DNA of 64,000 bases. It comes from Candidatus Paceibacter sp. (GTDB lineage: Bacteria; Patescibacteriota; Patescibacteriia; Magasanikbacterales; UBA922). Positions 1,724 to 44,742 of this stretch are shown here, piece after piece. The notes beneath the pieces are model-generated. The model saw only the letters and a program-made list of their open reading frames with translations. It ran no database searches and had not been told where the DNA came from. The DNA lies in contig DYFM01000005.1 in NCBI GenBank assembly GCA_020725175.1, positions 1,855 to 65,854 on the forward strand, read 5' to 3'. The first letter of the stretch is position 1. Each line of letters opens with the position of its first letter. The position numbers and the translations under genes are program-made.

Positions 1724-2305
1724 ATGGAAGGTATGGAAGTATATATTGATGAATCAGGAATTCATAAATTTTCCGGTTATAGTGTTGTTTGTTTTGTTTA
1801 TGTACAAACTGATGGAGTAAAAGAAGTAGAAAAAGCACTGATAAAAGTTGAAAATTTACTTGGAATTAGAAAGTTTCGTTGGTCCGATTTTGGTTCCAAA
1901 CGAGGATGGGTGGTACGAGAAAGTTTTATTCGTCATATAATACCACTACCGTTTCTTTTCAATATTATATATTTTCAAAACCCTATCGCATTTCATTCTG
2001 CTTTTGAGCATGTTCTACATTCTGTTATTCAGCATGATAGAATAAGGAAAATCATTATTGATGGTAAAAAATCGAGAACGTATTCTCGGCGCATAAAAAA
2101 TGTACTACGTAAACATAACATTTCTGTGAAAAAAGTAGTTATGGCAAATGATGGGGGTACTCCAGGGTTACGATTAGCAGATGCTCTTGCCGGGTTATAT
2201 CGATCACATATGGAGAAACCAACGAGCAAAACAAATGATCTGATAAGTTTAATCACTCGTAACAACAAAAAACCGTCCATTATGGACGGTCAGATTGCCC
2301 GGTAG
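1724..2305 (+). CDS. DUF3800-domain protein
   Basis: N-terminal VYIDESG and C-terminal LRLADALAG motifs are typical of DUF3800. The start lies 4 nt after the translin-like gene. Confidence 0.5.
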   Translation: MEGMEVYIDESGIHKFSGYSVVCFVYVQTDGVKEVEKALIKVENLLGIRKFRWSDFGSKRGWVVRESFIRHIIPLPFLFNIIYFQNPIAFHSAFEHVLHSVIQHDRIRKIIIDGKKSRTYSRRIKNVLRKHNISVKKVVMANDGGTPGLRLADALAGLYRSHMEKPTSKTNDLISLITRNNKKPSIMDGQIAR

Positions 2306-2467
2306 TTTGGAAGTCTTCCAAACTCTCCCCATACGGCGGATTTGTCCCGGGTTCTTGTTCTAGATAAACTATATCATTATTTAAGAAGATTGTCAATCAT
2401 TATGTCTCGATACATGTGCTGTGACTTAGACAATTAGCCAAAACCCTCTATTTCCTAAAATTAGAAA

Positions 2468-7883: not shown

Positions 7884-8017
7884 AAAATACGAATTCGCCT
7901 CGGGTGGAAATCTATATTCTCGACTCAAAGAAGTTATTCACACGTTTAGACTTTCTAAACGTGTTTTTGTTCTAGGAGAAAAAAGGGAAATGTGGTATAC
8001 TTTGTTTTGTAAATCAA

Positions 8018-8085
8018 AAATCATAAATCATAAATCCAAAGTTGTGTTGTTGATTTTAGATTTATGATTTTAGATTTATGATCTC
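8018..8085. promoter_or_regulatory. Long imperfect inverted repeat immediately upstream of ftsE; candidate operator
   Basis: The arms atcataaatcataaatc and gatttatgattttagatttatgat flank a short spacer. The repeat ends 4 nt before the ftsE start codon. Confidence 0.4.
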
Positions 8086-8088
8086 ACA

Positions 8089-8769
8089 ATGATTACTCTC
8101 AATAACGTCTCAAAATATTATACCAAAGATAGTGTAGGGCTTCGTGATGTGCATCTGCATATTGATGCGGGTGAGTTTGTGTCTGTGGTGGGGCAAAGTG
8201 GAACAGGGAAAACTACTTTGGTAAAGCTCCTAATAGCCGAAGAGCGTCCAACTTCAGGTCAAATTATTATTGGTAGTTGGGATGTGACTCATATTCCACA
8301 TCGCGATGTGCCGTTTTTACGTCGTCAAATCGGAGTAATTTTCCAAGATTTTAAACTACTACAAAAAAAGACTGTTGCGGAAAATGTAGCGTTTGCGCTT
8401 CAGGTAGCAGGGGAGCGACCAAAACGTATTCGAGAGGTTGTTCCGCGAGTACTCGACATTGTAGGCTTGAAGCATAAAGCAGACCGTTACCCTGATCAAA
8501 TTTCCGGAGGAGAACAGCAACGAGTGGTTATTGCTCGGTCACTTGTTCATCGTCCAAAAATTTTAGTGGCAGATGAGCCAACCGGAAATCTCGATACAAT
8601 CAATTCACATGAAATTATTGAAATACTTAAAAAAATTAATGAGTTTGGAACAACCATTCTTCTCGTGACACACAATCGAGATATCGTGAACCAGCTTCAA
8701 AAGCGGGTGGTTACCATTCATGATGGTCATATTGTGTCCGATGAAGAAAAAGGGTCGTACCGACTGTGA
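8089..8769 (+). CDS. ftsE: Cell division ABC transporter ATP-binding protein FtsE
   Basis: Walker A GQSGTGKTT, ABC signature LSGGEQQRV, Walker B ILVADEPTGNLD. Confidence 0.85.
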   Translation: MITLNNVSKYYTKDSVGLRDVHLHIDAGEFVSVVGQSGTGKTTLVKLLIAEERPTSGQIIIGSWDVTHIPHRDVPFLRRQIGVIFQDFKLLQKKTVAENVAFALQVAGERPKRIREVVPRVLDIVGLKHKADRYPDQISGGEQQRVVIARSLVHRPKILVADEPTGNLDTINSHEIIEILKKINEFGTTILLVTHNRDIVNQLQKRVVTIHDGHIVSDEEKGSYRL

Positions 8770-9830: not shown

Positions 9831-10193
9831 ATGGGGGGTACGGCCAATTTTAAGAATTTGTTTGTTTATCAGTGTTCATTCAAAAATGCCCTAGAGATAT
9901 ATCGTTTCTCTCAACAGTTGCCTCAATACCTACGATATGATATTGCAGATGACCTGAGAAGAGCAGCTAGATCAGTCCCTTCCAATATTGCTGAAGGATA
10001 TGGAAGGAATAAATCAAATGCTGATATTGTAAACTTTTTACGAACTTCGTTGGGATCGAATGATGAAGTGGTGTTTAATCTAGAGTTTTTAAAAGGATTA
10101 TCCTTGATTAACGAAGAGCAGTATCAACATTTTACAGGTCAAAGCAAACTTATTGGGTCGGGCTTACAAAAATTAATACAGTCACTTTCCTAG
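9831..10193 (+). CDS. Four-helix-bundle protein (TIGR02436 / 23S rRNA intervening-sequence protein family)
   Basis: NIAEGYGR motif and an overall ~120-aa helical pattern. Confidence 0.65.
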   Translation: MGGTANFKNLFVYQCSFKNALEIYRFSQQLPQYLRYDIADDLRRAARSVPSNIAEGYGRNKSNADIVNFLRTSLGSNDEVVFNLEFLKGLSLINEEQYQHFTGQSKLIGSGLQKLIQSLS

Positions 10194-10308: not shown

Positions 10309-10379
10309 TCGGGGATCGTCTAATGGTAGGACTCCAGGTTTTGGTCCTGGCTATCGGGGTTCGAATCCCTGTCCCCGAA
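10309..10379 (+). tRNA. tRNA-Gln (anticodon TTG)
   Basis: Acceptor TCGGGGA/TCCCCGA, anticodon stem CCAGG/CCTGG with loop TTTTGGT, T-arm CGGGG TTCGAAT CCCTG. Confidence 0.7.
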
Positions 10380-10513
10380 CGAGGCTATTTGCTCATCTTT
10401 TTTCAGATTGACAATGGCCTGTAAATATAGTAAACTAATGTCGAAGTTTTTAGTGCGCTAAGTTATCTGAGTAGGCTCAGTCAACTTAGAACTCTTAGAA
10501 AACTCAAAAACAT

Positions 10514-10677
10514 TCGGAAGTAGCTCAGTGGTAGTCCCGACAGTGGTCGGGAGTATATCCTCAAGAGCTATATACGGATGAGAATTACAACATATTCGGA
10601 AGTAGCTCAGTGGTAGTCCCGACAGTGGTCGGGAGTATATCCTCAAGAGCTATATACGGATGAGAATTACAACATAT
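10514..10677 (+). repeat. Two tandem 82-bp units, each beginning with the first ~22 nt of tRNA-Asn
   Basis: catattcggaagtagctcagtggtagtcccgacagtggtcgggagtatatcctcaagagctatatacggatgagaattacaa appears twice with period 82. The third unit is the genuine tRNA gene. Each unit contains the hairpin tcccgac/gtcggga. Confidence 0.75.
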
Positions 10678-11087
10678 TCGGAAGTAGCTCAGTGGTAGAG
10701 CAGTTGGCTGTATATCACGGAATGCGTGTTTTATTACGCATACGACTAGCAGCTCTCGATAGGAATATCGGGATGAAGAACAAGGTGAATTGCTGGAAAC
10801 CCTATCAGGTTATGCTGAGGGTAATCAGCAGCCAAGCCCTATATCTCTACGGAGATCAGTAGGGAAGGTTCAGAGACTATCCTGTAATGGGAGTAGGCTG
10901 GTACATGTATCAGTCGAAGCGCCTTGCACCCCATCGCTTTCGAGCAATCGAAATTTGGCGAGGGTGAAGATATAGTCCACGCTTTCCTGACTATATTGTC
11001 GGGACGATAAACCGTTTCGGTTGTCGCTGGAAACAGGAGATATTACGTGTAACCAATTGGTCGTGGGTTCGAATCCCACCTTCCGAG
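10678..11087 (+). tRNA. tRNA-Asn (anticodon GTT) interrupted by a group I intron; exons 10678-10711 and 11050-11087
   Basis: The exons fold as acceptor TCGGAAG/CTTCCGA with discriminator G, D-arm GCTC AGTGGTA GAGC, anticodon stem GTTGG/CCAAT, and T-arm GTGGG TTCGAAT CCCAC. The anticodon loop becomes CT GTT AA when the exons are joined after U35. U1-A72 with G73 fits Asn identity; Thr-UGU is the alternative if the splice site is two nt upstream. Confidence 0.65.
10712..11049 (+). ncRNA. Group I self-splicing intron in the tRNA-Asn anticodon loop, ~338 nt, no endonuclease ORF
   Basis: The conserved core elements are present: P (aattgctggaaa), Q (aatcagcagc), R (gttcagagacta) and S (aagatatagtcc). 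The 5' exon ends in U and the intron ends in G. Confidence 0.7.
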
Positions 11088-17555: not shown

Positions 17556-17589
17556 ACATTGTATTAGTAGGGATCAAACGAATGAGGCG

Positions 17590-17630
17590 GATTACAACGA
17601 ATTCGTTATAATCCGTTCAATTCGATCAAT
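17590..17630. repeat. Palindromic element cggattacaacgaa/ttcgttataatccg; member of the AACGGAT-core family
   Basis: 14-bp near-perfect inverted repeat centred on AACGAATTCGTT. Confidence 0.45.
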
Positions 17631-17643
17631 CCGTGGTCTATTA

Positions 17644-18096
17644 TTATCGTACTTCAATTGTATCAACCACAGCATCTAGTAATTCCTTCATCTTTCGATC
17701 ATTCATTTGATAAAAAAGTTTTACCACGAATGATCCGGAAGCACCGGTGAGTGTTTTGATATCTTTGGGGATATTTCGGTCGGCATAGTCTTGTGTCTGC
17801 CCATCTTCTACACCAAATGGTAAGTCTTGTGCGTCAGAAGTTGAAACAATTTCGATACGTGAATTATCTCCTGTTATCAAAAGTATGTCTGTTTCTGGTT
17901 CACGTTCCACAACATACCCATCAGGATATTGAAATGTCATTGCGTCTGATGTGTATGAATGTTTCAATTTGTATATCTCAGCCTGGGTTGGTTCTGGGGC
18001 AGATTCATTGGAACTATCATTTCTAAACACAAAAAATGTAATGCTCGCAAGAATAATAATTCCCGATACAACCGGCAAAAAGATTTTTTTGTTCAT
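17644..18096 (-). CDS. Hypothetical secreted or membrane-anchored protein
   Basis: N-terminal transmembrane/signal segment MNKKIFLPVVSGIIILASITFFVF. Confidence 0.45.
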   Translation of the reverse strand: MNKKIFLPVVSGIIILASITFFVFRNDSSNESAPEPTQAEIYKLKHSYTSDAMTFQYPDGYVVEREPETDILLITGDNSRIEIVSTSDAQDLPFGVEDGQTQDYADRNIPKDIKTLTGASGSFVVKLFYQMNDRKMKELLDAVVDTIEVR

Positions 18097-18249
18097 ATCA
18101 AAATATTTGTTGAGAAGTAATAGATAAAAAATGCAGTAACCACACTTCCGCGGTAATCACTCATCAATCAGGACTACTCAGTAAACAAAACCAACTTAAC
18201 TTACTCCAAAAACTTAGCTTACCCAGAGAACTCAGAAAACCCAGTCAAC

Positions 18250-19125
18250 TTAGACTCTCTCCACCCAATGCACATCAACACCAACATCAAGTTCCAAAAA
18301 TACTTTCTTGTTGGTTGCTTGTTCCAGTTCTTTTCTCGCCATTTGACCAATTTCCTTGATTTTACTTCCGCGAGCACCGATAATCATGCGCTTGTATCGC
18401 TCTTCGTTGGTCAAAATCCGAGCAGAAATGACAAAGAGATCTGGTTTTTCCTCAACACTGTCTACCTCAACAGAAATAGAGTAGGGTACTTCCTTATCAA
18501 AAATTGAGAAGGTTTTTTCTCGAATTATTTCAGAAATCCAAAAGTGATGATCTACGTTCGTTAGCTGATCCTCCGGGTAGAGTGGCTCACCTTCAGGAAG
18601 AAGTTCAATAACTTTATCACGCAGTGGCTGTACATGACTGGCTCGAAGCGCAGAAACCGGAAGAACAGCATCAAAATCGTTGCCCCAAAATTCATAATCG
18701 GCTTGAAACGCGCGTTCACTACGAGATAAATCACTTTTGTTAATGACGAGTATTTTAGGTTTTTCCACATGACGAATCATACCATATACTGCTCGTTCTT
18801 CTTGACCTATTTCTCTGGTAGGATCTACGACATATACAATGACATCAATATCTTGCAGTGCCTCGTGAACTTTATTTGTTAGTTTGGCGGTAAGCGGATT
18901 TTTTCTATCTTTAAATACCCCTGGGGTATCCACAAAAATCGCTTGCCCGTGAGGAGTGTTCATGACTCCGTGTATGATATGGCGGGTCATTTGCGCACGA
19001 AAACTAGTGGCAGCAATTTTAGTGCCAACGAGTGTGTTCAATAGGGTAGATTTGCCCACGTTTGACCGACCGACGAGGACGACAAAGCCGGACTTTGGTT
19101 GGGGGGTTGTTTGTTCTTTCTTCAT
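18250..19125 (-). CDS. era: GTPase Era
   Basis: G1 motif GRSNVGKST, G3 DTPG, G4 NKSD, and a C-terminal KH domain. Confidence 0.9.
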   Translation of the reverse strand: MKKEQTTPQPKSGFVVLVGRSNVGKSTLLNTLVGTKIAATSFRAQMTRHIIHGVMNTPHGQAIFVDTPGVFKDRKNPLTAKLTNKVHEALQDIDVIVYVVDPTREIGQEERAVYGMIRHVEKPKILVINKSDLSRSERAFQADYEFWGNDFDAVLPVSALRASHVQPLRDKVIELLPEGEPLYPEDQLTNVDHHFWISEIIREKTFSIFDKEVPYSISVEVDSVEEKPDLFVISARILTNEERYKRMIIGARGSKIKEIGQMARKELEQATNKKVFLELDVGVDVHWVERV

Positions 19126-19130
19126 AGGTT

Positions 19131-19302
19131 TTACGGATTACGGATAATACGGAGCTACGGATATTGCTTATCAAAAGTGTGTATGAAAATAGGGTGTGTA
19201 TTTAGTATAAAGTAACTAGCTTATTTTACATAATTTATTTTTGAACTTAATCTTACAATTTCCATCAAACATCCGTAGCTCCGTATTATCCGTAATCCGT
19301 AA
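19131..19302. mobile_element. 172-bp element bounded by 32-bp perfect inverted repeats (ttacggattacggataatacggagctacggat); MITE-like or a divergent-promoter operator
   Basis: The left arm at 19131-19162 is the exact reverse complement of the right arm at 19271-19302. An AT-rich ~108 bp core separates them. It lies between the era and rplI starts. Confidence 0.5.
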
Positions 19303-19377
19303 CGTCATATTCAAATGTGGATATTATTATACCTAACTATTGCCAAAAAATCAACCTCGGGGTATACTGAATGGTAT

Positions 19378-19821
19378 ATGAAAGTAATTCTTCTCAAAGA
19401 CGTCCCCGGAACCGGTAAACGGGGAGAAATAAAAGAAGTGGCTGATGGGTATGCTCACAATTTTTTGATTAAGAAAAAATTGGCTGAACCAGCATCAAAG
19501 CAGTCCGTTCGTTCTGTGCAAGAAAAAGAAGCTAAGAAGCTACGAGATAACCAAAAAAATCGCCAACGCACCGAACAAATGGTCTCACGTCTTGATGGTG
19601 CGGAAATTGAAGTATCAGAAAAAACCAATGATGAAGGAAGATTGTACGCAGCCATAACGGCGCAAAAGCTATCGAGCTATATTCAAAAAAAATGTGGGAT
19701 TACTGTAGACCCAAAGCAAATCATTATTGAAGATCCAATCAAAGAAATTGGTGATCACCGAGTGCGCATCGACCTCGGTTACGGACTCGAGGCCGAACTA
19801 TCCGTCATTGTCTCCGATTAA
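19378..19821 (+). CDS. rplI: 50S ribosomal protein L9
   Basis: MKVILLKDVPGTGKRGEIKEVADGYAHNFLIKKKLA is the L9 N-terminus. The track ORF starts 63 nt earlier, but this internal ATG is the plausible start. Confidence 0.85.
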   Translation: MKVILLKDVPGTGKRGEIKEVADGYAHNFLIKKKLAEPASKQSVRSVQEKEAKKLRDNQKNRQRTEQMVSRLDGAEIEVSEKTNDEGRLYAAITAQKLSSYIQKKCGITVDPKQIIIEDPIKEIGDHRVRIDLGYGLEAELSVIVSD

Positions 19822-28781: not shown

Positions 28782-29378
28782 ATGTCCAAAGAAGTCATTT
28801 TCGATATAGAAACCATCGGTGATATAAAAGATCTGAGCACTATGAAAATCACAGTCGTTTCTATTTACGACTATGAAACCAACGCATACTATTCATTTGA
28901 CGAACATGAGTTACATGGTCTTTGGCCATACATGGAAAAAGCGGAACGAATTATTGGGTACAACAGTGAACACTTTGATTTGCCTATTCTCAATCGCTAT
29001 TACGCCGGTGATCTGACGAAGTTTCCGCACTTGGATTTATTGGTCGTCATTAAAGAAATGGCCGGTAAACGCTACAAACTGGATGATATAGCAAAAGCAA
29101 CACTTCAAATAAGTAAAAGTGCCGATGGATTACAAGCAATGAAATGGTATGAGGAGGGGAGAATTGATGAGATTAAAAAATACTGTGAACAAGATGTAAA
29201 AGTTACCAAAGAAGTGTATGAGTTTGGATTAAAAAATAAAATGCTTTATTATCCAACCCTCACCGGCGATCTTATGCCAATTGCCGTTAATTTTGATATG
29301 CCGGTTCAACCGGTGGGAGTATCTGGAGGAGAAGTGGGGAATGATGGAAAAAGTTTTAACTTGACTTTGCCCTTCTAA
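28782..29378 (+). CDS. DEDDy-type 3'-5' exonuclease domain protein
   Basis: Exo I FDIET, Exo II HFDLPIL, Exo III YCEQDVK. Confidence 0.55.
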   Translation: MSKEVIFDIETIGDIKDLSTMKITVVSIYDYETNAYYSFDEHELHGLWPYMEKAERIIGYNSEHFDLPILNRYYAGDLTKFPHLDLLVVIKEMAGKRYKLDDIAKATLQISKSADGLQAMKWYEEGRIDEIKKYCEQDVKVTKEVYEFGLKNKMLYYPTLTGDLMPIAVNFDMPVQPVGVSGGEVGNDGKSFNLTLPF

Positions 29379-29554
29379 GCATTGATTATACAGATTTTAG
29401 ACGGATTACGCAGAGATGTCTAAACATTGATTACACAGATTAAAAAAGATTGCACAGAGGTGTAATCTTTTTTGTCTGAATTTAGTTATAAGTAGGTTTA
29501 AGACCGATCAGTGTAATCATCCTGTAATCCCTCTAAAATCTGTATAATCAATGC
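29379..29554. mobile_element. 176-bp MITE-like element with 23-bp perfect terminal inverted repeats (gcattgattatacagattttaga), flanked by TAA on both sides
   Basis: The left TIR at 29379-29401 is the exact reverse complement of the right TIR at 29532-29554. Internal sub-repeats (gattacgcagag, gattacacagat, gattgcacagag) are present. It fills the convergent gap between two genes and abuts both stop codons. Confidence 0.55.
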
Positions 29555-30246
29555 TAAAAGATTTCAAAATGCACTTCCTTTGCATCCACTCCATTTTTTA
29601 GAAGAATCTCTCGAACATCTTTCACCATAGCAGCGCTGCCACAAAGGTAAAAACTATGGGAAACCAAATGGTGAAGAATATGTTCTGTTACACGACCGCG
29701 TAGTCCAGACCAGCCTCCATCCGGTTTTGGTTGAGAGAGAGTAATTTGATAGTCAAATAGAGGATGTTGTTGTTTTAAGACTTCTAATCTATCTGCCCAA
29801 AACACATCTTCTTCATTTCGAACTCCAAAAAGTAGTCGGATTTCTTTGCCGGTTTTTTTTACTTCCAGTTCTTCTCGTATCATTCCCATAATCGGAGCCA
29901 GTCCGGCTCCGGTAGCGACAAAATAGTAGGCCTGTACATCATTTGTGCAAACAAACCGCCCCCGTGGACCACGAAATTCAGCTGTTTCTCCTACAGTTAG
30001 ATTTTGAAAATAATTTGATGCTTTTCCATCCGGAAGACACTTTACACACAATTCCAAGTGCTCATCTTGTGAGGTGGACGCAAGTGAATATGACCGGATA
30101 ATAGGTTCATCACCGGGTACAAAAAATTGAATAAACTGCCCGGCTTCAAAAGTGAAATCAGTAGGCTTAGTGAAATGAAGTTCTAGGGTATTATTGGCAA
30201 TTTTTTCTTTTGAGATGAGCGTTGTGGTGTAGCGTTCGTTGGACAT
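29554..30246 (-). CDS. FAD/NAD(P)-binding oxidoreductase (ferredoxin-NADP reductase-like)
   Basis: RSYSLAS FAD-binding motif, a GTGLAP-like NAD motif (ATGAGLAP), and a ~230-aa length. Confidence 0.7.
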   Translation of the reverse strand: MSNERYTTTLISKEKIANNTLELHFTKPTDFTFEAGQFIQFFVPGDEPIIRSYSLASTSQDEHLELCVKCLPDGKASNYFQNLTVGETAEFRGPRGRFVCTNDVQAYYFVATGAGLAPIMGMIREELEVKKTGKEIRLLFGVRNEEDVFWADRLEVLKQQHPLFDYQITLSQPKPDGGWSGLRGRVTEHILHHLVSHSFYLCGSAAMVKDVREILLKNGVDAKEVHFEIF

Positions 30247-30295
30247 ACTGAGAGGAAATATTATTCTTTTAATTTTATGTGTGGGTGAATAGACC

Positions 30296-30352
30296 TCGGA
30301 TATAACAGATGAAACGGATCAGTTCTAATCCGTTTCATCTGTTATATCCGTG
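30296..30352. repeat. Perfect 23-bp-arm palindrome (cggatataacagatgaaacggat ... atccgtttcatctgttatatccg); AACGGAT-core family
   Basis: Inverted repeat with a 9-nt loop, upstream of the Rrf2 regulator promoter. Confidence 0.55.
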
Positions 30353-30380
30353 TTGCTATTATTTATATAAGTGTAATGAT

Positions 30381-32307: not shown

Positions 32308-32391
32308 CTAAACATTGTCATCCTGAATGTAGCCGAAGCGATGTGAAGGATTTGTCAAAAATAAAAAGAAAATAATTGATAGAGCTTCGGA

Positions 32392-32455
32392 TTTAACGGA
32401 TTGGACGAATTAGAACGGATCAGTTAATATCCGTTTCATCCGTTAAATCCGAAGG
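32392..32455. repeat. Palindromic element cttcggatttaacggat ... atccgttaaatccgaag; AACGGAT-core family
   Basis: Long imperfect inverted repeat between sufB and sufS. Confidence 0.5.
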
Positions 32456-32524
32456 TCTATTCAACCCTTAAAAATGTAGAAGCCCGCCGTGATTCTCTCG
32501 AATGGCGGCGGGCAGTGCTCACCC

Positions 32525-32665: not shown

Positions 32666-33895
32666 ATGCTTTTAAATCTAAAAGAATGTAAGATTTGCTT
32701 TCCAATATTCCAAAAACACCCCAATCTAGTCTATCTAGATTCAGCTTCCAGTACCCAAACACCACAAACTGTTCTTGATGCAGTGAACGATTACTATATA
32801 AACTACCGAGCAAATATTCATCGAGGATTATATGATTTGAGTGGTACTGCAACACAGAAATATGAGGAAGCCAGAAAAACAGTAGGAAAGTTTATCAGCG
32901 CAAGTTCGAAAGAAATTGTCTTCACATCCGGAACAACTCATGGTCTAAATCTACTCGCCTCAGGAGTACAAAATACTCTTCAGCCGGGTGATAATATTGT
33001 GTTGACTGAAATGGAACATCATGCGAATTTAATTCCGTGGCAAAAAATTGCAAAGAAGAAGGGGATGGAGCTACGATTTATACCAATGAACAGGGAACAG
33101 AGGACAGGGAACAGTTACGAATTGGGTGTTTCTGACATTGAAAATTTGATTGATGAAAAGACGAAAATCGTATCTTTTACTCTGGTATCAAATACGCTCG
33201 GAACAATTAATCCGGCGGAAGAAATTATTGCTCGAGCAAAAAAAATTGGTGCAATCACAATTGTCGACGCAGCACAGGCAATGGCGCACATGCCGATTGA
33301 TGTAAAGATATTAGACTGCGATTTTATGGTATTTTCCGGACATAAAATGTATGGTCCAACCGGAATTGGTGTTTTATACGGAAAAAAAGAAAGGTTGGAA
33401 GCACTTGAACCATTTTTTTATGGCGGAGACATGGTCCGTTCTGTATCGTATGAAGATGCAACTTGGGCAGATGTACCGGAAAAATTTGAAGGGGGTACGC
33501 CAAATATTGCGGGTGCGATTGGACTTGGTGCTGCGGTTGAATTTATTCAGTCTACTGGGTTTGATAAAATACAGAATCACGAAACACAATTAACTAATAA
33601 ACTAATAAACCAATTAAATAGTATACCTGATGCTCGGATAATTGGATTGAATTCAGAGGAAAAAAGAATTGGAGTAGTCTCATTTTTACTAAAAGACATT
33701 CATCCTCACGATGTGGCGGAAATATTGAATCGCGACCAGGTATGTGTCCGTACTGGGCATCACTGCACTATGCCACTTATGAAGAAACTTGGTTTACCAG
33801 GAACAGTACGTGCTTCAGTTGGGATTTACAATACGGAAGATGATATTGATAAACTTTTTGCGTCTTTAGCGAGAGTTATGGCTGTTTTTAAATAG
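32666..33895 (+). CDS. sufS: Cysteine desulfurase SufS (class V aminotransferase)
   Basis: YLDSASSTQ start region, PLP-binding SGHK, and the active-site Cys motif RTGHHC. I placed the start at the internal ATG (MLLNLKE). The exact coordinate is +/-1 nt because my manual count disagrees by one with the ORF track in this region. Confidence 0.8.
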   Translation: MLLNLKECKICFPIFQKHPNLVYLDSASSTQTPQTVLDAVNDYYINYRANIHRGLYDLSGTATQKYEEARKTVGKFISASSKEIVFTSGTTHGLNLLASGVQNTLQPGDNIVLTEMEHHANLIPWQKIAKKKGMELRFIPMNREQRTGNSYELGVSDIENLIDEKTKIVSFTLVSNTLGTINPAEEIIARAKKIGAITIVDAAQAMAHMPIDVKILDCDFMVFSGHKMYGPTGIGVLYGKKERLEALEPFFYGGDMVRSVSYEDATWADVPEKFEGGTPNIAGAIGLGAAVEFIQSTGFDKIQNHETQLTNKLINQLNSIPDARIIGLNSEEKRIGVVSFLLKDIHPHDVAEILNRDQVCVRTGHHCTMPLMKKLGLPGTVRASVGIYNTEDDIDKLFASLARVMAVFK

Positions 33896-33897
33896 AC

Positions 33898-33968
33898 CGC
33901 GGATTTAACGGATGGAACGAATTAAAACGGATCCGTTCCAATCGGTCTAATCTGTTAAATCTGCGGTC
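33898..33968. repeat. Palindromic element gaccgcggatttaacggat ... atctgttaaatctgcggtc; AACGGAT-core family
   Basis: Long inverted repeat between sufS and sufU. Confidence 0.5.
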
Positions 33969-33983
33969 TATTAAGCATAATCT

Positions 33984-34376
33984 ATGAAGCAAACCGACCC
34001 AATCTACAAAGAAATGATCCTATATCTATATAAAAATCCACTAAACAAAAAACAGTTGGCCGATTTTGATTGTTCACATAAAGAATACAATCCCAGCTGT
34101 GGAGACGAAATAGAAATCATGATCAAATTTGATGAGTCCGGTAAAATTATCGATATTGGACACCAAGGTGAAGGCTGTGCTGTTTCACAAGCAGCGGTTT
34201 CTTTGTTGACAGAAGAAGTAAAGGGTAAAAGCAAAGAAGAGGTGATGAGTTTGACTGAAGAGGAAATGATTAACATGCTGGAAATTCCTATTTCTCACAC
34301 GAGATCAAAATGTGCATTACTGGGTTTGAAAACTATTCTATTTTGTTTTGATAGACCTTCGAATAAGACGAATTAA
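33984..34376 (+). CDS. sufU: SufU/IscU-like zinc-dependent sulfur-transfer scaffold
   Basis: NPSCGDE, GEGCAVSQA and KCA give three conserved Cys in the NifU-N-like fold. Confidence 0.7.
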   Translation: MKQTDPIYKEMILYLYKNPLNKKQLADFDCSHKEYNPSCGDEIEIMIKFDESGKIIDIGHQGEGCAVSQAAVSLLTEEVKGKSKEEVMSLTEEEMINMLEIPISHTRSKCALLGLKTILFCFDRPSNKTN

Positions 34377-34430
34377 ACGGATATTAACAGATCCCTTCTA
34401 ATCAGTTGCACTCGTTAAATCCGAAGATCT
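34365..34430. repeat. Imperfect palindromic element (gacgaattaaacggat ... cgttaaatccgaagatc); AACGGAT-core family
   Basis: Located between sufU and sufC. It shares the ttaaacggat and atccg words with the other copies. Confidence 0.4.
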
Positions 34431-34443
34431 ATCAACATTTTAT

Positions 34444-35945: not shown

Positions 35946-36266
35946 ATGCTAGATACAGCAAATAACAACACCCCACACAACGACGTGATACTTCCAAACG
36001 ATTTACCGGATGATATCTCCCAAAACGTTCGCAAAGAAGGAAAGATTCGACGTATTGTTGTAGACAGACAAGCCTGTATTGGAGCTAGATCTTGTGTATT
36101 GGTAGCCGAAAAAGTGTTTCAAATGGATGACCAGAATCTCGCGTACGTCACTACTGATGTTGACAGTACCGATGAAGATACGATCAAAATGGCCGCTGAA
36201 GTGTGTCCGGTACTAGCAATTCATTTGTACGACAAAGAGGGGAATAAGCTGTTTCCGGAAGAATAA
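35946..36266 (+). CDS. Single-cluster ferredoxin ([3Fe-4S]/[4Fe-4S])
   Basis: CIGARSC ... CP Cys pattern and a ~100-aa length. Confidence 0.55.
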   Translation: MLDTANNNTPHNDVILPNDLPDDISQNVRKEGKIRRIVVDRQACIGARSCVLVAEKVFQMDDQNLAYVTTDVDSTDEDTIKMAAEVCPVLAIHLYDKEGNKLFPEE

Positions 36267-36275
36267 TATATGGTA

Positions 36276-36305
36276 ACAAATCTAACACGACCGCTTATTC
36301 GGTCG
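36276..36305 (+). terminator. Rho-independent terminator after the ferredoxin gene
   Basis: acacgaccgcttattcggtcgtgtttttt. Confidence 0.65.
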
Positions 36306-36371
36306 TGTTTTTTGTTTAATGGGAAGTGGGCGGGCGGGTACTCGGCAACGTGCTTTTCCCCGCCCCCCTGC

Positions 36372-36464
36372 CTAGATCGACTGGTGGCACTGCCACCAGT
36401 CGACCAGGCATAGGATCACCGCCAACACTGCGTTGACGGTGATCACCCACAGGAGGATAACCAT
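36372..36464 (-). CDS. Candidate small hydrophobic peptide (30 aa: MVILLWVITVNAVLAVILCLVDWWQCHQSI)
   Basis: Perfect Shine-Dalgarno sequence AGGAGGTGAAAAATG. The SD and start codon sit inside a hairpin (cacaggagg ... cctcctgtg). The gene lies in a 170-bp GC-rich islet that contains a 27-bp perfect palindrome (tcgactggtggcactgccaccagtcga). The overlapping 61-aa track ORF has no ribosome-binding site. Confidence 0.3.
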   Translation of the reverse strand: MVILLWVITVNAVLAVILCLVDWWQCHQSI

Positions 36465-36535
36465 TTTTCACCTCCTGTGCCAAAAGTATAACAATAAACA
36501 CAGCTCATTGTAAGCTGTGTTTATTTAGTAGGTGT

Positions 36536-39178
36536 TTATTTCTTATTTATCTCAATTTTATTTTTCTTAATTCCAACGGTCACCGTATCGCCTTCAGCAA
36601 TAGTTCCTTCCACAATTTGGAGTGCCAGCGCATCAAGGAGCTCATGCTGAATAACCCGTTTCAATGGCCGTGCACCTAGGTTTGGATCATAGCCTTTTTT
36701 AGAAAGCCATTCCTTTGCCTTGTCCGTAACTTCAAGTACAATACGTTTTTCATGCATACGGCGATAGACTTGCTCCAGTTGGGTATCGACAATTTGACGA
36801 ATTTGTTTTTCTGTCAGCGGATGAAATACAATAATTTCATCAATTCGATTCAAAAATTCCGGTTTAAAATTTTCTCGAAGAGCTTCCATTACCCGAGAAC
36901 TGATTTTTTCTTCTCGTTTTGCTTTGGTGATAGTATCACTTTTTTCTGCAAATCCAAATTCACCCTTTCGTCCGAGTTGCATGATCATGTCACTCGCAAT
37001 ATTACTGGTCATGATAATAACCGTATTTTTGAAATTTACTTTTCTTCCTTTTGCGTCAGTCAAATGTCCATCTTCGAGAATCTGCAACATGATATTGAAT
37101 ACATCCGGATGGGCTTTTTCCACTTCATCAAACAAAACAACTGAATATGGTTTGCGGCGAATAACTTCAGTAAGCTGTCCACCCTCCTCATAGCCAACAT
37201 ATCCCGGTGGAGAACCAATAATTTTACTGGCCGTATGTTTTTCCATGTATTCAGACATATCCACCCGAACCAAAGCATTTTCATCGTTGAACATGAATTC
37301 AGCCAGAGTTTTAGCAAGTTCAGTTTTCCCTACACCAGTCGGGCCAAGAAAGATAAATGAACCAATCGGTCGTTTTTCCTCAGAAATACCGGCTCGTGAA
37401 CGGCGAATAGCATTTGCTACCGCTTTGATTGCTTCTTCTTGCCCAATAACTCGTTTGGCAAGTACACATTCTAAATGGGCAAGCTTACGTGTCTCATCCT
37501 CAAGCATTTTTTGAACCGGAATTCCAGTCCAACGCGCAACTACTCGCGCAATATCTTCTTCTGTCACTTCTTCCTTGAGAATCGCACGCTTACCTTGGAG
37601 TTCAGACAGTTTCTTTTCGTCCTGAGCAATTTGACGTTCCAATTCCGGAATGCGAGCATAGCGAATTTCAGCAACTTTTTGCAGATCTCCTTTTCGTTCT
37701 TCTATGTCAGCCTGCTGTTTCAGCTTGTCAATTTCTTTTTTTGCTTCCCGAATCTTGGTAATAATTTCTTTCTCGTGTTTCCAATGTACTTCTAGTTCGT
37801 TGCTTTGTTCTTTCAGATCTGCCAGTTCTTTGGAAAGCTTAGATTTCCGTTCCTCCGCCTCCGGATCATTTTCTTTTTTGAGCGCTCTTAGTTCAATCTC
37901 GGTTTTCATGATTCTTCGTTTCAGATGATCTAGGTCATCCGGCATAGATTCTATCTCCATTCGAATCGCAGAGGTTGCTTCATCAATAAGATCGATTGCT
38001 TTGTCAGGAAGAAATCGGTCGGTAATATAACGACTCGCCAATTTTACCGCAGAAACCACTGCTGAGTCAGTAATACGTACCCCGTGGTGTACTTCATATT
38101 TTTCTTTAATTCCACGAAGTATTGCGACAGCATCATCTTCACTTGGTTCTTTCACCATGACTGGCTGAAAACGGCGTTCAAAAGCCGCGTCTTTTTCAAT
38201 ATACTTCTGATATTCTTTGATGGTTGTCGCGCCAATAGTACGAAGTTCTCCACGGGCAAGTGCCGGCTTCAACATGTTTGACGCGTCTACCGCACCTTCA
38301 GAACTTCCAGCACCAATAATAGTATGAAGTTCGTCAATAAAAAGAATGATTTTTCCTTTGGAATTGGTTACTTCTTTCAATACAGCTTTTAGTCGTTCTT
38401 CAAACTCACCACGAAATTTTGTTCCGGCCACCAGTGCACCTATATCCAATCCTACCAATTCTTTTCCCTGTAAACTTTCCGGCACATCACCTTTGACAAT
38501 TCGTTGTGCCAACCCTTCTACAATGGCTGTTTTTCCAACACCTGGTTCACCAATAAGAACTGGATTATTCTTAGTTCTTCGGGTCAACACTTGCATAACC
38601 CGCCGAATTTCATCGTCTCGTCCGATCACTGGATCAAGTTTTTCCTTGCGAGCCATTTCAGTAAAATTTTGACCATACTTTTCAAGCGATTGATAGGTTG
38701 ATTCCGGAGTAGGGGAACTGACTTTTTGTGAACCACGAACTCCTGCCAATACTTTTAACACCATATCATAATCTATTCCTTCAGAAAGGAGCATGTCGCT
38801 AATGGGGTTTTTATTACTGAGAAAGGCCAGGAGAAGATGTTCAACACTTATATAGTCATCACCCATTTTTTTCGATTCTTGTTGAGCGTTTTTTAAAATA
38901 TACATGGCCCCTTGTCCCATAAGAACTTGCCCCATAGCGCCCGGACTCATACCAAACTGTCGAGGGAGCACATTCATCAGTGATTCAACGTCACCTTTAA
39001 GCTGATCAAGGTTTACGTTTAATTTTTGAAAAACTGCAATAACCACACCATCCTGTTGCTCCAATAGAGCGGCAAACAAGTGTGGCGGCTCTATCTGTGG
39101 CTGTCCATGATCGTTGGCGATTTCTTGAGCCCGCTGAATTGCTTCTTGTGATTTTTGGGTAAAATTTTGTGGATTCAT
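36536..39178 (-). CDS. clpB: ATP-dependent chaperone ClpB
   Basis: Clp N-domain, two AAA+ modules (GEPGVGKT and GPTGVGKT) and a long middle coiled coil; 880 aa. Confidence 0.9.
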
Positions 39179-39237
39179 AATGTGTATTTAAAAGACAAAA
39201 TTGACTATTTTCTCAATCAAACTGTCCGAAGAGGATT

Positions 39238-39262
39238 ATCACTCTAATATAGAGAGTGCTAA
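39238..39262. promoter_or_regulatory. CIRCE-like inverted repeat (HrcA operator) upstream of clpB
   Basis: On the clpB strand it reads TTAGCACTC-TCTATATTA-GAGTGAT, compared with the consensus TTAGCACTC-N9-GAGTGCTAA. One half is perfect and the other matches 7 of 9. It is 60-85 bp upstream of the clpB start. Confidence 0.5.
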
Positions 39263-39348
39263 TACTATACCATACTGGAAATTGTTGTCAATATATGTTA
39301 AAGTTACGTATACTATAACAAATTTTTCAGTTACTGTGGAAAAAAATT

Positions 39349-39909
39349 ATGAAACATCGGGTTTTTGTTTCATTTCCAATACCAGAAGAAATCCAGGAGG
39401 AGCTCGCACTGTTCCAGCTTCAACTAAAGAAAAAAATCGGGGATAGAGAAATAAAATGGGTAAAAAAGCACCAATTTCACATTACCGGAGTATTTATCGG
39501 CAATATTCTCGACGTACAAGTCCATACTATTGAATCTGTCTTGCTAGATATAGGACAAACGTTTACGCCACTCTTCTTCCGTGCCAATTCTATTACATAT
39601 TTTCCTCACAGAAGTAAGCCGAAACTCCTCGTGATAGACATGAAGGATATGAATGGAGTGGGTGAAAAAATGGTAAAAACAATAAAAAAACAATTACGGA
39701 TAAACAATTTTTCTATGAACGACACAGCTTGGCGACCACACGTGACGCTCGGAAGAGTAAAACAAGAACTAGAAATACTCCCAGCACCTAAACTTCTTTT
39801 AGAGACTAAACTCGAGTGGCCAGTCAATACCATTGAACTTGTGAAAAGTACGCTCACTCCCTGTGGCCCTGTATATGAAGCACTTTTTATCGGTAAACTA
39901 AATCAATAA
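39349..39909 (+). CDS. thpR: RNA 2',3'-cyclic phosphodiesterase (2H phosphoesterase, LigT/ThpR)
   Basis: Two H-x-T/S-x motifs (HITGVF and HVTLGRV) and a ~185-aa length. Confidence 0.7.
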   Translation: MKHRVFVSFPIPEEIQEELALFQLQLKKKIGDREIKWVKKHQFHITGVFIGNILDVQVHTIESVLLDIGQTFTPLFFRANSITYFPHRSKPKLLVIDMKDMNGVGEKMVKTIKKQLRINNFSMNDTAWRPHVTLGRVKQELEILPAPKLLLETKLEWPVNTIELVKSTLTPCGPVYEALFIGKLNQ

Positions 39910-39926
39910 GTTTATTTGTACCGACT

Positions 39927-40754
39927 ATGCCAATATCACGGTGTGAAACAGTTTTAGGTGTTCGGGTTGACTCTGCTTCTGCAGCTGATTTTTTACATAT
40001 AGTTGAAAATCATATTTCCAGTGCTCACAGGAGTAATCCTTGTGTTATCTTTACTCCAAATCCGGAAATGCTAGTTGCCAGTACAAAAGATACTTATTTT
40101 CAAGACGTACTAAATGAAGCCTCAATTAATCTCTGCGACGGATTCGGAACTGTATTGCTATATAAGGTATTATACCCGCGCAAGAAAAAAATTCAAAGAG
40201 TTACCGGAACAGACTTCATGCTTTCAATTTGTCAAATGGCCGCGTCCCTAGGTAAAACAGTGTACTTTCTAGGCAGTGGCCAGCAAGCTGTGCTGCAGCA
40301 AACTGTGGCCTACTTCAAAAAACACGTGCCAGGTCTTGCTATTGCTGGCTCACATCCAGGAATTTCAATTAGTATTGTAGAAAAAAAAGTTTATGGCTTG
40401 AGACGACGTGTGCTTGAAATGAACGAAACCGCGCACGATGAAATGATTCATGATATAATACTCAGAGCTCCGGATATATTGTTTGTCGCATTTGGACACG
40501 AAAAACAGGAAAAGTGGGTTATTGAAACTATCAAACATTTACCAAGCGTACAGGTAGTCATGGGAGTAGGCGGTGCCTTTGATTTTTACAGCGGAACAAT
40601 ACGACGAGCGCCACGGTTGCTCCAGTTACTCGGGCTCGAATGGTTTTGGAGAGGTATCCTCCAACCAGCTCGTTTCCGAAGAATCTTTACAGCAACTGTA
40701 CTATTTTCATTCCTAATGATTAAAGAACGATATACCAGTACTAAACATACTTAG
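39927..40754 (+). CDS. WecB/TagA/CpsF-family glycosyltransferase
   Basis: Family pattern VLGV.VD ... FTPNPE ... DG.G. Confidence 0.7.
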   Translation: MPISRCETVLGVRVDSASAADFLHIVENHISSAHRSNPCVIFTPNPEMLVASTKDTYFQDVLNEASINLCDGFGTVLLYKVLYPRKKKIQRVTGTDFMLSICQMAASLGKTVYFLGSGQQAVLQQTVAYFKKHVPGLAIAGSHPGISISIVEKKVYGLRRRVLEMNETAHDEMIHDIILRAPDILFVAFGHEKQEKWVIETIKHLPSVQVVMGVGGAFDFYSGTIRRAPRLLQLLGLEWFWRGILQPARFRRIFTATVLFSFLMIKERYTSTKHT

Positions 40755-40764
40755 TAAAACATAT

Positions 40765-41526
40765 ATGCTCACAAATACCATGAAACAACACGTGACAAAG
40801 CTGCAACAGAAGAAGTATCGATACGAATTTCAAGAATTTATTATTGAAGGAAAAAAAGCAATAGATGAAGCATTCCAAAACACAGCAAAATTGACTACAA
40901 TTTTTATTCAAGAAGAAAAATCAGAATCTGAAGAATTTGATCAGGTTATTCAACGTGCAAAAAAAGAGCATATACCAGTCTACTTTGTTAGTAAAAAAGA
41001 TATTAAAGATATTAAAACCACATCAACGTATCCTGGCATATCGGCAATCGTTACTTTTCAGCCGCAAACATTGGCAACTATCACACAAAACACACCGATA
41101 ATTGTACTTGACAGTATCAATGACCCCGGGAACCTGGGTACTATTATTCGCACTGCGGATTGGTTTGGATTTACTACTATTCTTTTGTCAGAAAATTGTG
41201 TCGACCCGTACAATGAAAAAGTGGTACGATCGACCATGGGCTCTATATTTCACATGAACCTTATTCAGAGTACAAATATTGTTCAGGATGTCGCCCTGTT
41301 AAAACAAAAGAAATACAAAGCCTATGGCTTCACTATGAAGGGTAAAAACATCAAAGGCTTGAAAAAAAGTAAGAAATCTGTTTATATATTTGGCAGTGAA
41401 TCGCACGGAATTCAGGAGGACCTACTTCCTCTCTGTAATGGATTATATTCAATTCCTGGTAAAGGAAAAGCTGAATCATTGAACGTGGCTGTATCGGCGG
41501 CGGTTGTAATGTATAAAGTAGTGTAG
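40765..41526 (+). CDS. TrmH/SpoU-family RNA 2'-O-methyltransferase
   Basis: SpoU motifs LDSINDPGNLGTIIRTADWFG and GSESHG, plus an N-terminal substrate-binding domain. Confidence 0.75.
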   Translation: MLTNTMKQHVTKLQQKKYRYEFQEFIIEGKKAIDEAFQNTAKLTTIFIQEEKSESEEFDQVIQRAKKEHIPVYFVSKKDIKDIKTTSTYPGISAIVTFQPQTLATITQNTPIIVLDSINDPGNLGTIIRTADWFGFTTILLSENCVDPYNEKVVRSTMGSIFHMNLIQSTNIVQDVALLKQKKYKAYGFTMKGKNIKGLKKSKKSVYIFGSESHGIQEDLLPLCNGLYSIPGKGKAESLNVAVSAAVVMYKVV

Positions 41527-41559
41527 TTATTCATTATTTATTCAGAATCGTAATGTTAT

Positions 41560-43038
41560 ATGATAAAGACCAGAATCGCCCCAAGTCCAACCGGTTTTCT
41601 ACACGTCGGCAATCTTCGCACGGCCTTATTTTGCTACTTATACGCCAAAAAGAACCAAGGTCAATTTTTTATTAGAGTTGAAGACACTGATCGAGAGCGT
41701 TTGGTAGAAGGAGCAATTGAAAATATGCTTCAGTCATTGCATTGGGTAGGTATTATTCCGGATGAAGGGGTTGATTATGACGGACAAAAAGTTATTCAAA
41801 AAGGGGATAAAGGACCTTATGTCCAATCGGAGAGATTGGATATATATCAAACTTATATCAACCAGCTTATTCAGCAAAAAGACGCTTACCATTGTTTTTG
41901 TAGTCGAGAGCGTTTGGAAGAATTACGTAAAGTCCAGGAGTTGAATAAGCAGCCGGTTGGTTACGATGGTCATTGTCGATCTCTTGCTTCGGAATTTGTG
42001 GAGGAGCAGTTAAATAATAAAACACCATTTGTTATTCGCATGAAAATGCCCAAAGAAGGTACAACCACTTTTACAGATTTGGTTCGTGGAGATGTTACTT
42101 TTGAAAACAAACTTGTCGATGATCAGGTACTAATGAAAACAGACGGATTTCCCACATATCATTTTGCGGTGGTGGTTGATGATCATCTTATGGGAACCAG
42201 CCATGTTATGCGTGGAGAAGAGTGGATTTCTTCGACACCTAAACACATCACTCTTTATAAAATGTTTGGCTGGGAGGCTCCACAGTTTGCTCACTTATCA
42301 CTTTTGGTAAATGAAGAAAAGAAAAAACTGAGCAAGCGACACGGTGATGTATTTGTGAATGATTTTAAGGAAAAAGGCTACCTACCGGAAGCTTTGTTGA
42401 ATTTTATCGCTTTTCTGGGCTGGAATCCAGGTACTGATCAGGAAATTTTCTCTCTCGATGAACTTATCGCCAATTTTGATTTTTCAAAAGTTTCCAAAGC
42501 ACCGGCAGTTTTCAACCGAGAAAAATTAAACTGGTTCAACAAGCAATACTTGACCGTGATGAGTGACGATACATTGGTGGATAGGGCCTTACCATTTTTT
42601 ATAAATTCCGGACTATTATCTTCTCCTAAACAATACCCAAAACAATGGCTTTCTCGAGTAGTTTCACTGGAAAAAACTCGTTCAGCTACATTGGTGGAAT
42701 TGGTGGAACATGTTTCGTTCATCTTTGCCGATTCACTTGTCTACGATTCGGAGTTGCTAGTATGGAAAAAAAGTACTGCTGAAGATGCTAAAGAAAAACT
42801 AGTACAACTATCAAATCTTTTGACTACTTTTTCTGATCAAGAATGGAACAAGGGAGATCTTGAAACTAAAGTTCTCACCTGGATTAAAGAAAATGAATTT
42901 GGAGTTGGAGATGTTTTATGGCCCACTCGAGTTGCCCTATCCGGACAAAAAAATTCCCCCGGACCCTTTGAGATTATGGATGTATTGGGGAAGGAAAAAA
43001 CTCTATCTCGCCTGAACCAAGCCATTTCCTTGCTATAA
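41560..43038 (+). CDS. gltX: Glutamate--tRNA ligase
   Basis: RIAPSPTGFLHVGN (HIGH) and KLSKR (KMSKS) motifs; 492 aa. Confidence 0.9.
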   Translation: MIKTRIAPSPTGFLHVGNLRTALFCYLYAKKNQGQFFIRVEDTDRERLVEGAIENMLQSLHWVGIIPDEGVDYDGQKVIQKGDKGPYVQSERLDIYQTYINQLIQQKDAYHCFCSRERLEELRKVQELNKQPVGYDGHCRSLASEFVEEQLNNKTPFVIRMKMPKEGTTTFTDLVRGDVTFENKLVDDQVLMKTDGFPTYHFAVVVDDHLMGTSHVMRGEEWISSTPKHITLYKMFGWEAPQFAHLSLLVNEEKKKLSKRHGDVFVNDFKEKGYLPEALLNFIAFLGWNPGTDQEIFSLDELIANFDFSKVSKAPAVFNREKLNWFNKQYLTVMSDDTLVDRALPFFINSGLLSSPKQYPKQWLSRVVSLEKTRSATLVELVEHVSFIFADSLVYDSELLVWKKSTAEDAKEKLVQLSNLLTTFSDQEWNKGDLETKVLTWIKENEFGVGDVLWPTRVALSGQKNSPGPFEIMDVLGKEKTLSRLNQAISLL

Positions 43039-43043
43039 TATGT

Positions 43044-43295
43044 ATGTTGGTTAGAAGAAAACATGACCTTCTTTCAAAAGAAAAACGTGAAGTAGTCATT
43101 GAAAAAATTATTAGCTATTTTCATACCGAAAGAAACGAAACTATCGGTATTATAGCAGCCGGAGAATTTTTAGACATGCTACTACAAATGATTGCGGAAG
43201 ATATTTACAACCTCGCCATTGAGGATGCGAAAGTAACAGTAAAACAATCCTTTGAAAATCTGGAAGTAAACTTGGGTCTTTTGCTAAATAAGTAA
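43044..43295 (+). CDS. Hypothetical small protein (DUF2164-like)
   Basis: 83 aa, starting 6 nt after the gltX stop. Confidence 0.35.
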   Translation: MLVRRKHDLLSKEKREVVIEKIISYFHTERNETIGIIAAGEFLDMLLQMIAEDIYNLAIEDAKVTVKQSFENLEVNLGLLLNK

Positions 43296-43371
43296 GCATC
43301 ACTCTCCCTATTTTATCAACACCAAACAACCTTTCTCAAACCCTCGACATATGCTATACTAAACATAGCAT

Positions 43372-44616: not shown

Positions 44617-44664
44617 TAGCTCTCACAAACAACAGACTATTATTAGTCATGTTGAACAAGTAAA

Positions 44665-44742
44665 CAGACCGCGAATGAAACGGATTAAACAAAATGCAAC
44701 GAATTCGTTTTTATCTATCTAATCTGTTTCATTCGCGGTCTA
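44665..44742. repeat. Palindromic element agaccgcgaatgaaacggat ... atctgtttcattcgcggtct; AACGGAT-core family
   Basis: A 20-bp near-perfect inverted repeat around a ~38-bp core that contains AACGAATTCGTT. Confidence 0.5.

Follow-up and report, generated by a model that had tools for sequence, protein, structure and literature searches.

In Neisseria, Correia elements (CREE/NEMIS), the prototype of the bacterial miniature inverted-repeat transposable element (MITE), are found between a promoter and a gene, and RNase III cuts them at the inverted repeats (PMC10969869, PMC2649163). Promoters can also arise at the junction with the flanking DNA from a −10-like hexamer of the repeat (PMC10969869, PMC2649163). 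Here we describe a 172-bp element with perfect 32-nt inverted repeats next to the era gene in a 64,000-nt stretch of DNA from Candidatus Paceibacter sp. (contig DYFM01000005.1, positions 1,855 to 65,854); this whole stretch is called the window and coordinates are positions in it, unless they follow the label of another locus (L002 to L023). Our reading, to which we give a probability of about one half, is that the element is a non-coding foldback repeat, made of two inverted copies of a dispersed 32-nt module around a 108-nt AT-rich core, that was recently acquired in the era leader of a Magasanikbacteria-like lineage. In kind it is best read as closest to the doublets of repetitive extragenic palindromes (REP; REPIN/BIME) and to Correia-type MITEs. 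The sections below show its position downstream of the era promoter, its lineage specificity, the dispersed-repeat nature of its arms and its thermodynamic stability.

The element and the era leader

Direct reading of the sequence and a repeat finder place the inverted arms at 19131-19165 and 19268-19302; they are 35 nt long, 97% complementary and 102 nt apart. The outer 32 nt of the arms are exact reverse complements, as the original prediction had stated. The parts of the element are as follows.

19131..19162, unstranded: left arm, one full 32-nt copy of the module (TTACGGATTACGGATAATACGGAGCTACGGAT); 3′ half of the stem in era-sense RNA
19163..19270, unstranded: AT-rich core, 108 nt, about 24.5% GC; the outermost 3 nt on each side lengthen the stem to 35 bp
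19271..19302, unstranded: right arm, reverse-complementary to the left arm without mismatch; forms the 5′ side of the stem in era-sense RNA

Each arm has the layout TTACGGAT-TACGGAT-AA-TACGGAG-C-TACGGAT and so holds the four TACGGA words that had been predicted, at spacings of 7, 9 and 8 nt. The core, also described correctly as AT-rich, has 24.5% GC between the 35-nt arms (19166-19267) against 44% in the arms. A perfect 32-nt inverted repeat within 200 nt is expected by chance about 3e-12 times per 64 kb (analytic estimate). A search of the 64 kb with the arm pattern, allowing up to three mismatches, returned the two arm sites and no further one, with none in 100 shuffles. Neither the element nor its core has an open reading frame (ORF) of 40 aa or more; a small toxin ORF in the core was considered and rejected, the core ORFs being of 32-38 aa and not hydrophobic. 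Logan contigs (k = 31) of other sequencing runs stop exactly 30 nt (k−1) into each arm: one (L002, SRR5011275) carries the correct era flank and two (L004, SRR5011275; L005, SRR13164376) the correct rplI flank. Because these independent assemblies show both arms with the correct flanks, the element is real and no assembly artefact; the perfect 32-nt repeat breaks k = 31 assemblies exactly at the era locus. No direct repeat is present between the flanks AGGTT and CGTCA, and a TA duplication is indistinguishable from the palindrome itself (T-TA-CGGATT...AATCCG-TA-A).

The element lies in the spacer of two divergent genes, era and rplI, as originally described. The neighbouring features are listed here; the promoters were assigned by consensus match and conservation.

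18250..19125, minus strand: era GTPase gene (Pfam), whose 5′ leader (about 194 nt) is mostly the element
19126..19130, minus strand: spacer from the base of the stem to the era ATG (19125-19123), 5 nt, AACCT in era sense
19354..19326, minus strand: putative era promoter, TTGATT-17-TATAAT, 10/12 match, followed in era sense by the element after 23 nt
19340..19368, plus strand: putative rplI promoter, TTGCCA-17-TATACT, overlapping the era promoter
19378..19821, plus strand: rplI (ribosomal protein L9), divergent neighbour of era, N-terminus MKVILL

This overlapping pair comprises the only strong (10/12) sigma-70-like sites within 19100-19400. Since both lie to the right of the element, the element is predicted to be inside the era transcript, and it ends 38 nt upstream of the rplI −35. 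Each of eight related loci has a single promoter of the era type (TTGATT or TTGAAA, 17 nt, TAnnnT) in its rplI-era spacer. The offset of this promoter from the rplI start codon is 26 nt in the window and in loci L006, L007 and L009, and the promoter block TTGCCAAAAAATCAACC is kept in L006. On these assignments the element is neither between nor over the divergent promoters and fills the era leader.

The position bears directly on the operator for the divergent era and rplI promoters that the original prediction had offered as one explanation, in which a regulator would bind the eight TACGGAT/ATCCGTA words and loop or occlude the control region. Eight copies of one heptamer in symmetric arrays are what such a protein might recognize, and six further palindromes of the window, four being in spacers of an Rrf2-suf operon, are also built of ACGGAT-type words. 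The element, though, follows the era promoter and stops short of the rplI −35; every relative examined lacks it or has other sequence in its place, although the promoters (19326-19368) are conserved; and copies of the module within mnmA and past a terminator are at sites where an operator for era and rplI would have no purpose. With the element outside the promoter block and not conserved, the operator appears the weakest of the rival explanations, and we regard it as very improbable.

Promoter-like sites inside the core are weak (8/12) and occur on both strands. They enter a further explanation that we consider highly unlikely, in which the arms are the recombination sites of an invertase and a core promoter would drive era when the core is in one orientation and point towards rplI after inversion. 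The architecture fits, with a 100-200-bp segment upstream of genes enclosed by inverted repeats of about 30 bp, perfect arms are expected if recombination homogenizes them, and the window encodes one tyrosine recombinase (47959-48921). This gene, the only recombinase in the window, is XerC/D-like and 29 kb from the element. Furthermore, the core matches are poor, the conserved promoters of era and rplI are both outside the element, the arms belong to a dispersed module also found solo and inside coding sequence, and no assembly in the opposite orientation was seen, though there was no proper test of orientation. A −10-like GATAAT hexamer is present in each arm; the copy in the right arm forms, with TTGAAT in the flank, a junction site (TTGAAT-18-GATAAT, 19314..19285) that matches the consensus at 9/12. 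Alternatively to the upstream promoter, era transcription may start at this weaker junction site or in the core.

The era-sense leader (197 nt) is predicted to fold into an uninterrupted 35-bp stem with a minimum free energy of −65.8 kcal/mol (z = −9.5 against the dinucleotide shuffles of the folding tool, −9.9 against our own). The opposite strand folds equally well; the 3-bp extension of the stem past 32 bp needs one G-U pair that forms in the era-sense RNA only, a single position to which we attach no weight. A search of Rfam (E-value and gathering thresholds) gave no family at gathering score, with generic long-hairpin miRNA models far below threshold. If the element is co-transcribed with era, the leader RNA would adopt this 35-bp stem. 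A perfect duplex of 35 bp is long enough for an RNase III substrate, and the stem would be expected to act as one. No Shine-Dalgarno sequence precedes the era ATG, and direct reading shows no alternative in-frame start ahead of the conserved KSGF motif. Since the stem abuts the ATG, 5 nt away, in a leader without Shine-Dalgarno sequence, it would hinder 30S binding until cleaved or bypassed. The predicted stem thus probably affects the processing or translation of era mRNA. Such a change in era expression would be a side effect of the insertion, as with Correia elements, rather than the work of an evolved operator or the reason why the element exists.

Several further features adjoin the element. 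Only 9 nt separate the rplI −10 (TATACT) from the rplI ATG, which would probably leave the mRNA leaderless or nearly so. The public rplI gene model (168 aa) starts at 19315, a spurious in-frame ATG just outside the element, where the true start is 19378; the element thus misleads gene callers. The Era proteins of the window and L006 have 291 residues, nine more at the N-terminus than the 282-residue relatives that start MKSGF. The ancestral era ATG has been lost (CCA AAG TCC; 19096-19125) and the start codon moved upstream, adjoining the element sites. Just downstream of the era −10, near the predicted transcription start, is the motif ATATCCACA (19312-19320; L006 2483-2491), which matches the DnaA-box consensus TTATCCACA at 8/9 positions and may be a coincidence. 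A replication origin, suggested by inverted word arrays flanking an AT-rich segment with this motif nearby, was rejected, as the GC skew does not change at 19 kb and relatives lack the element. A retron, an attC site and a TIGR array were likewise rejected, there being no reverse transcriptase, integrase or Nop-domain gene nearby.

The module and the era leaders of relatives

A scan of the GTDB species representatives, a collection that does not contain the source genome, with the outer 20-mer of the arm gave four matches in three other metagenome-assembled genomes (MAGs); one of these matches (L010) looks like chance. The matching unit is exactly one arm, 32 nt long with sharp ends and with the irregular 7/9/8 spacing of the words retained. 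It is present in four other places (L012, L009, L023 and L011) at 26-29/32 identity. Two contigs of one MAG, L012 (5705-5736) and L009 (4259-4289), carry CTACGGATTACGGATAATACGGATTTACGGAT, identical to the window arm at 29/32 positions, and their homology stops sharply at both ends. The L012 copy is solo, just past an intrinsic terminator, while the L009 copy is in frame in a hypervariable loop of mnmA, where it encodes LRITDNTDLRIT. At the orthologous place of mnmA in L023 (P0122; approximately 519-550) the module encodes LRITDNPDLRIL; the two MnmA proteins are only 70% identical and the flanking codons have diverged freely, whereas the module is identical at 29/32 nucleotides. In other MnmA homologues this loop holds word-like inserts of different sequence, such as ISNFKFQNKLKNL. 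In L011, whose MAG carries the label Saccharibacteria, a tight hairpin is made of two imperfect inverted modules (33 nt, 85%). It begins 5 nt after an extended −10 (TGGTATACT), and 4 nt separate its end from the ATG of a 105-aa zinc-ribbon gene, with promoter, hairpin and ATG in the order seen at era. On its own, a module lacks self-complementarity (self-fold only −1.9 kcal/mol). The MAG that contains L009 and L012 (ERP019367_co2_52) is titled uncultured Gammaproteobacteria, a label that looks wrong. Its PyrG, rplI product and Era are 74%, 47% and 79% identical to those of the window and the named matches of its MnmA are almost all Magasanikbacteria, hence, judged by these proteins, it is a relative. 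These matches identify the 32-nt module as the recurring unit, at sites that are non-orthologous in related genomes.

The solo copies (L012, L009, L023) also lend themselves to a different history, in which one module landed near the era start and a template switch or fold-back repair made an inverted copy about 140 nt away, the composite never having moved as a unit. The whole element is single-copy in everything searched, the perfect identity of the arms fits a single recent event and there is no visible target-site duplication. This history leaves the origin of the 108-nt core unexplained, since the leaders of relatives are only 27-64 nt and none resembles the core. An element of the same design at 29378-29555 and the 169-bp element at the same site in L006 point to a common mechanism that works on whole units. 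We consider an inverted duplication in situ unlikely.

The nearest Era proteins that bear a source name belong to Candidatus Magasanikbacteria or to unnamed Patescibacteria, which places the window organism in the Patescibacteria. We compared the era leaders of seven related loci with that of the window. The divergent arrangement of pyrG-rplI and era is the same in 7/7. Leader length below is from the −10 to the ATG and identity is that of the Era protein to the window protein.

Window: leader 200 nt, fold z −9.9, 172-bp element
L006: Era 93%, leader 222 nt, z −6.7, unrelated 169-bp inverted-repeat element
L018: Era 79%, leader 104 nt, z −9.0, perfect 25-bp hairpin, TGTCATTCCCGCAAAAGCGGGAATC
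L009: Era about 79%, leader 104 nt, z −4.5, 24-bp hairpin of ATAAGC words
L015: Era 78%, leader 64 nt, z about 0, without significant structure
L007: Era 77%, leader 63 nt, z about 0, without significant structure
L008: Era 82%, leader 28 nt, z about 0, without significant structure
L014: Era 79%, leader 27 nt, z about 0, without significant structure

The 172-bp element is absent from all seven syntenic relatives, and unrelated hairpins fill the leader in three of them. The closest, L006, has a promoter block that matches the window almost letter for letter, the ATATCCACA motif included. Its own element (2507-2675) starts 22 nt past the era −10, has arms of the type TGTCATCCTGAACGCAGCCGAGGCGAAGTGAAGGATC and shows no sequence similarity to the window element. 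When the era-rplI spacers of six loci are aligned, the promoter block of the window and L006 aligns and nothing else does. With the hairpin elements subtracted, the four long leaders (104-222 nt) come down to 28-53 nt, as in the basal, unstructured leaders. From these comparisons the simplest reading is that a short basal leader acquired the hairpin elements, by independent gain or by exchange, and that the window element would have arisen after the split from the L006 lineage. An operator or riboswitch-like leader is expected to show orthologous conservation with covariation; here the element is absent or replaced in all relatives. Conservation of the locus with compensatory changes was also what the original prediction had named as evidence against an insertion, and comparison of the relatives reveals no such conserved element.

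Several results weigh against a recently acquired foldback repeat. The search for copies that had been proposed at the outset found the module in related MAGs; a second complete 172-bp copy was not found in the 79.6-kb contig to which the window was matched, DYGQ01000007.1 of MAG GCA_020724605.1 (the window and the remaining 15 kb). Scanning of metagenomes with the inner 19-mer gave one chance match in an unrelated coding sequence, viral contigs had no match to a degenerate 22-mer, and blastn against plasmids and phages had none to the element. The core had no copy elsewhere in the sequences examined, and comparison of the three open-frame translations of the element with 5.8 billion proteins gave no candidate. 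No unambiguous target-site duplication was found, only the TA that is itself within the palindrome. Among the 63 ORFs of the window there is no transposase and no gene for the REP-associated transposase RAYT (57 by Pfam scan; of the other six, era, rplI, pyrG, cysS and greA were identified and a 1178-aa protein was scanned without match), and the window has no rnc (RNase III) gene. Finally, hairpins in four of the eight era leaders could mean that a leader hairpin is selected.

This last point has its own explanation, in which any long hairpin, whatever its sequence, is advantageous in the era leader and is repeatedly recruited and replaced, with the TACGGAT element as the present occupant. 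The roles proposed are a 5′ stabilizer against exonucleases, RNase III-gated control of translation and a thermosensor. The four exceptional hairpins (z −4.5 to −9.9) are mutually unrelated and all stand between the conserved promoter and the ATG, a layout seen again at ftsE (7993-8089) and in L011, and the arm extension pairs by G-U only in the era-sense RNA. Four relatives nevertheless have short unstructured leaders, and four of eight is only weakly above background, because long hairpins are common in the spacers of this genome and the lineages are not independent. The arms, being identical, hold no compensatory variation to analyse. We judge selection for a leader hairpin to be unlikely. 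A more elaborate proposal seems very unlikely: long hairpins of short words would be exchangeable leader cassettes between promoter and ATG that gate mRNA stability or translation through RNase III, and the era leader RNA would also pair with mnmA mRNA, linking ribosome-assembly and tRNA-modification genes. Its examples are era in four lineages, ftsE and the L011 zinc-ribbon gene, and the clade starts translation of many genes without a Shine-Dalgarno sequence. The pairing is conceivable because the era leader RNA holds the module in both sense and antisense and the module is conserved in mnmA across lineages whose MnmA proteins are 70% identical. We favour the recently acquired foldback repeat over these proposals.

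Other repeats in the window

The window is rich in long hairpins built of short periodic words, and the era element is one member of a larger set of hairpin repeats that evolves fast in this clade. One palindrome family begins with AATAGACC, followed by three or four ACGGAT/ACGAAT/ACAGAT words at a spacing of 9-10 nt; these are mirrored about a centre (GGATCC or GAATTC, for instance), and GGTCTATT closes the palindrome.

Copies in the window (six): 17571-17644, 30287-30361, 32378-32462, 33890-33972, 34348-34435 and 44662-44745
Copies outside the window: L006 4112-4195; L012 551-629

Four of the window copies lie in spacers of an Rrf2-sufB-sufS-sufU-sufC operon. The palindrome between a 150-aa gene and greA has kept its orthologous place in L006, with strongly diverged sequence. 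A second type of repeat has arms of GTCATCCTGA...AGGATC or GTCATTCCCGC...GGGAATC and looks like another widespread family.

Window 32316-32352: solo, just before the palindrome at 32378
L006 2507-2675: full inverted-repeat element in the era leader
L018 1415-1478: perfect 25-bp hairpin in the era leader
L009 1034-1123: related 33-nt inverted repeat

The foldback at 29378-29555 has 32-nt arms at 97%, a 114-nt core and GATTACRCAGA words in its interior; it takes up precisely the space between two convergent genes, running over the stop codon of each. It was rightly placed in the same size class as the era element with a different sequence, as the local alignment score of the two is at the null (20.0 against 19.8 ± 2.9). 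At ftsE a hairpin of 27-28 bp made of AAATCAT heptamers (8010-8082) begins 8 nt past an extended −10 (TGGTATACT) and ends 6 nt before the ATG (8089), so that promoter, hairpin and ATG follow one another as they do in L011 and at era. Degenerate 8-10-nt words (CTGAGT, CTAAGT, TTGAGT) make up the spacer downstream of era (18097-18249; L006 3583-3660), which has no palindrome, and other spacers have similar short-period arrays (AACTCAGAA, CTGAGTTA, AATAAACT and GTTCGTA).

After a tRNA (10309-10379) comes an 82-nt tandem repeat, perfect and in 2.3 copies (10512-10698), whose unit has a tRNA-like 5′ part (GGAAGTAGCTCAGTGGTAG); a group I intron (10722-10999, Rfam 76 bits) follows this repeat directly. 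At 9831-10193 lies the gene of a 23S-rRNA-intervening-sequence protein. A DUF3800-II RNA motif (2288-2361, minus strand, Rfam 54.5 bits) overlaps the 3′ end of a DUF3800 gene (1724-2305). The GC skew turns from positive to negative near 36 kb and the genes, mostly on the plus strand, are all on the minus strand after 49.5 kb. The segment at about 36000-49500, with the XerC/D-like gene, is possibly the replication terminus region.

Comparison with known repeat families

A search of the literature library returned no account of the element sequence nor of MITEs in Patescibacteria. If our reading is right, the element belongs to a previously undescribed small repeat family in Patescibacteria, and very small, streamlined genomes tolerate a fast turnover of hairpin elements in the leader of an essential ribosome-assembly gene. 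The locus gives the Correia/RNase III type a concrete case outside the Proteobacteria that can be tested; by itself it points to no new mechanism.

The proposal in the original prediction that this is a second MITE family stands in part. Terminal inverted repeats enclose a short non-coding interior (less than about 600 bp in total), the site is polymorphic for presence and absence at orthologous positions (absent in the seven syntenic relatives) and the arms are dispersed. No candidate parent, either an insertion sequence or a transposase gene whose terminal repeats match, was found in the window. Because there is no second full copy, no clear target-site duplication and no transposase in the window, membership of the MITE class is not established.

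Among MITEs the element resembles Correia elements in its size (theirs are approximately 100-200 bp), in terminal inverted repeats of approximately 26-32 nt and in an AT-rich non-coding core, as well as in the frequent location of Correia elements between promoter and gene start and in co-transcription, which is predicted here. There is no sequence relation. Correia elements have far more than 100 copies per genome and a TA duplication, whereas here we find one complete copy and an ambiguous TA, and the arms are made of tandem 7-9-nt words and equal a module that is also found solo. Arms of short tandem sub-repeats around an unrelated non-coding interior are also the design of the eukaryotic Foldback (FB) transposons. 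These belong to another domain of life and are of kilobase scale, so that the analogy is one of architecture only. The Rickettsia palindromic elements (RPE) share with the module the presence of a small repeat both in frame in genes (here in mnmA, L009 and L023) and between them; they differ in being palindromic units of 100-150 bp, where only the 32-nt module is in coding sequence here, and have no sequence relation to it.

The REPIN/BIME doublets of the REP/RAYT system in proteobacteria differ in that the REP unit is itself an imperfect palindrome and the module is not, and in that the spacer here is long (108 nt). No RAYT (Y1 transposase) gene, which in such systems the repeat units flank, is seen in the window or the 79.6 kb; one module copy is in frame in a gene. 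They are alike in a dispersed unit of 20-40 nt that occurs as singlets and as inverted hairpin doublets with a variable spacer (solo in L012, within coding sequence in L009 and L023, tight in L011 and wide in the window), in their intergenic or intercistronic location and in fast turnover between close relatives. A REPIN/BIME-like doublet fits the element at least as well as a MITE does.

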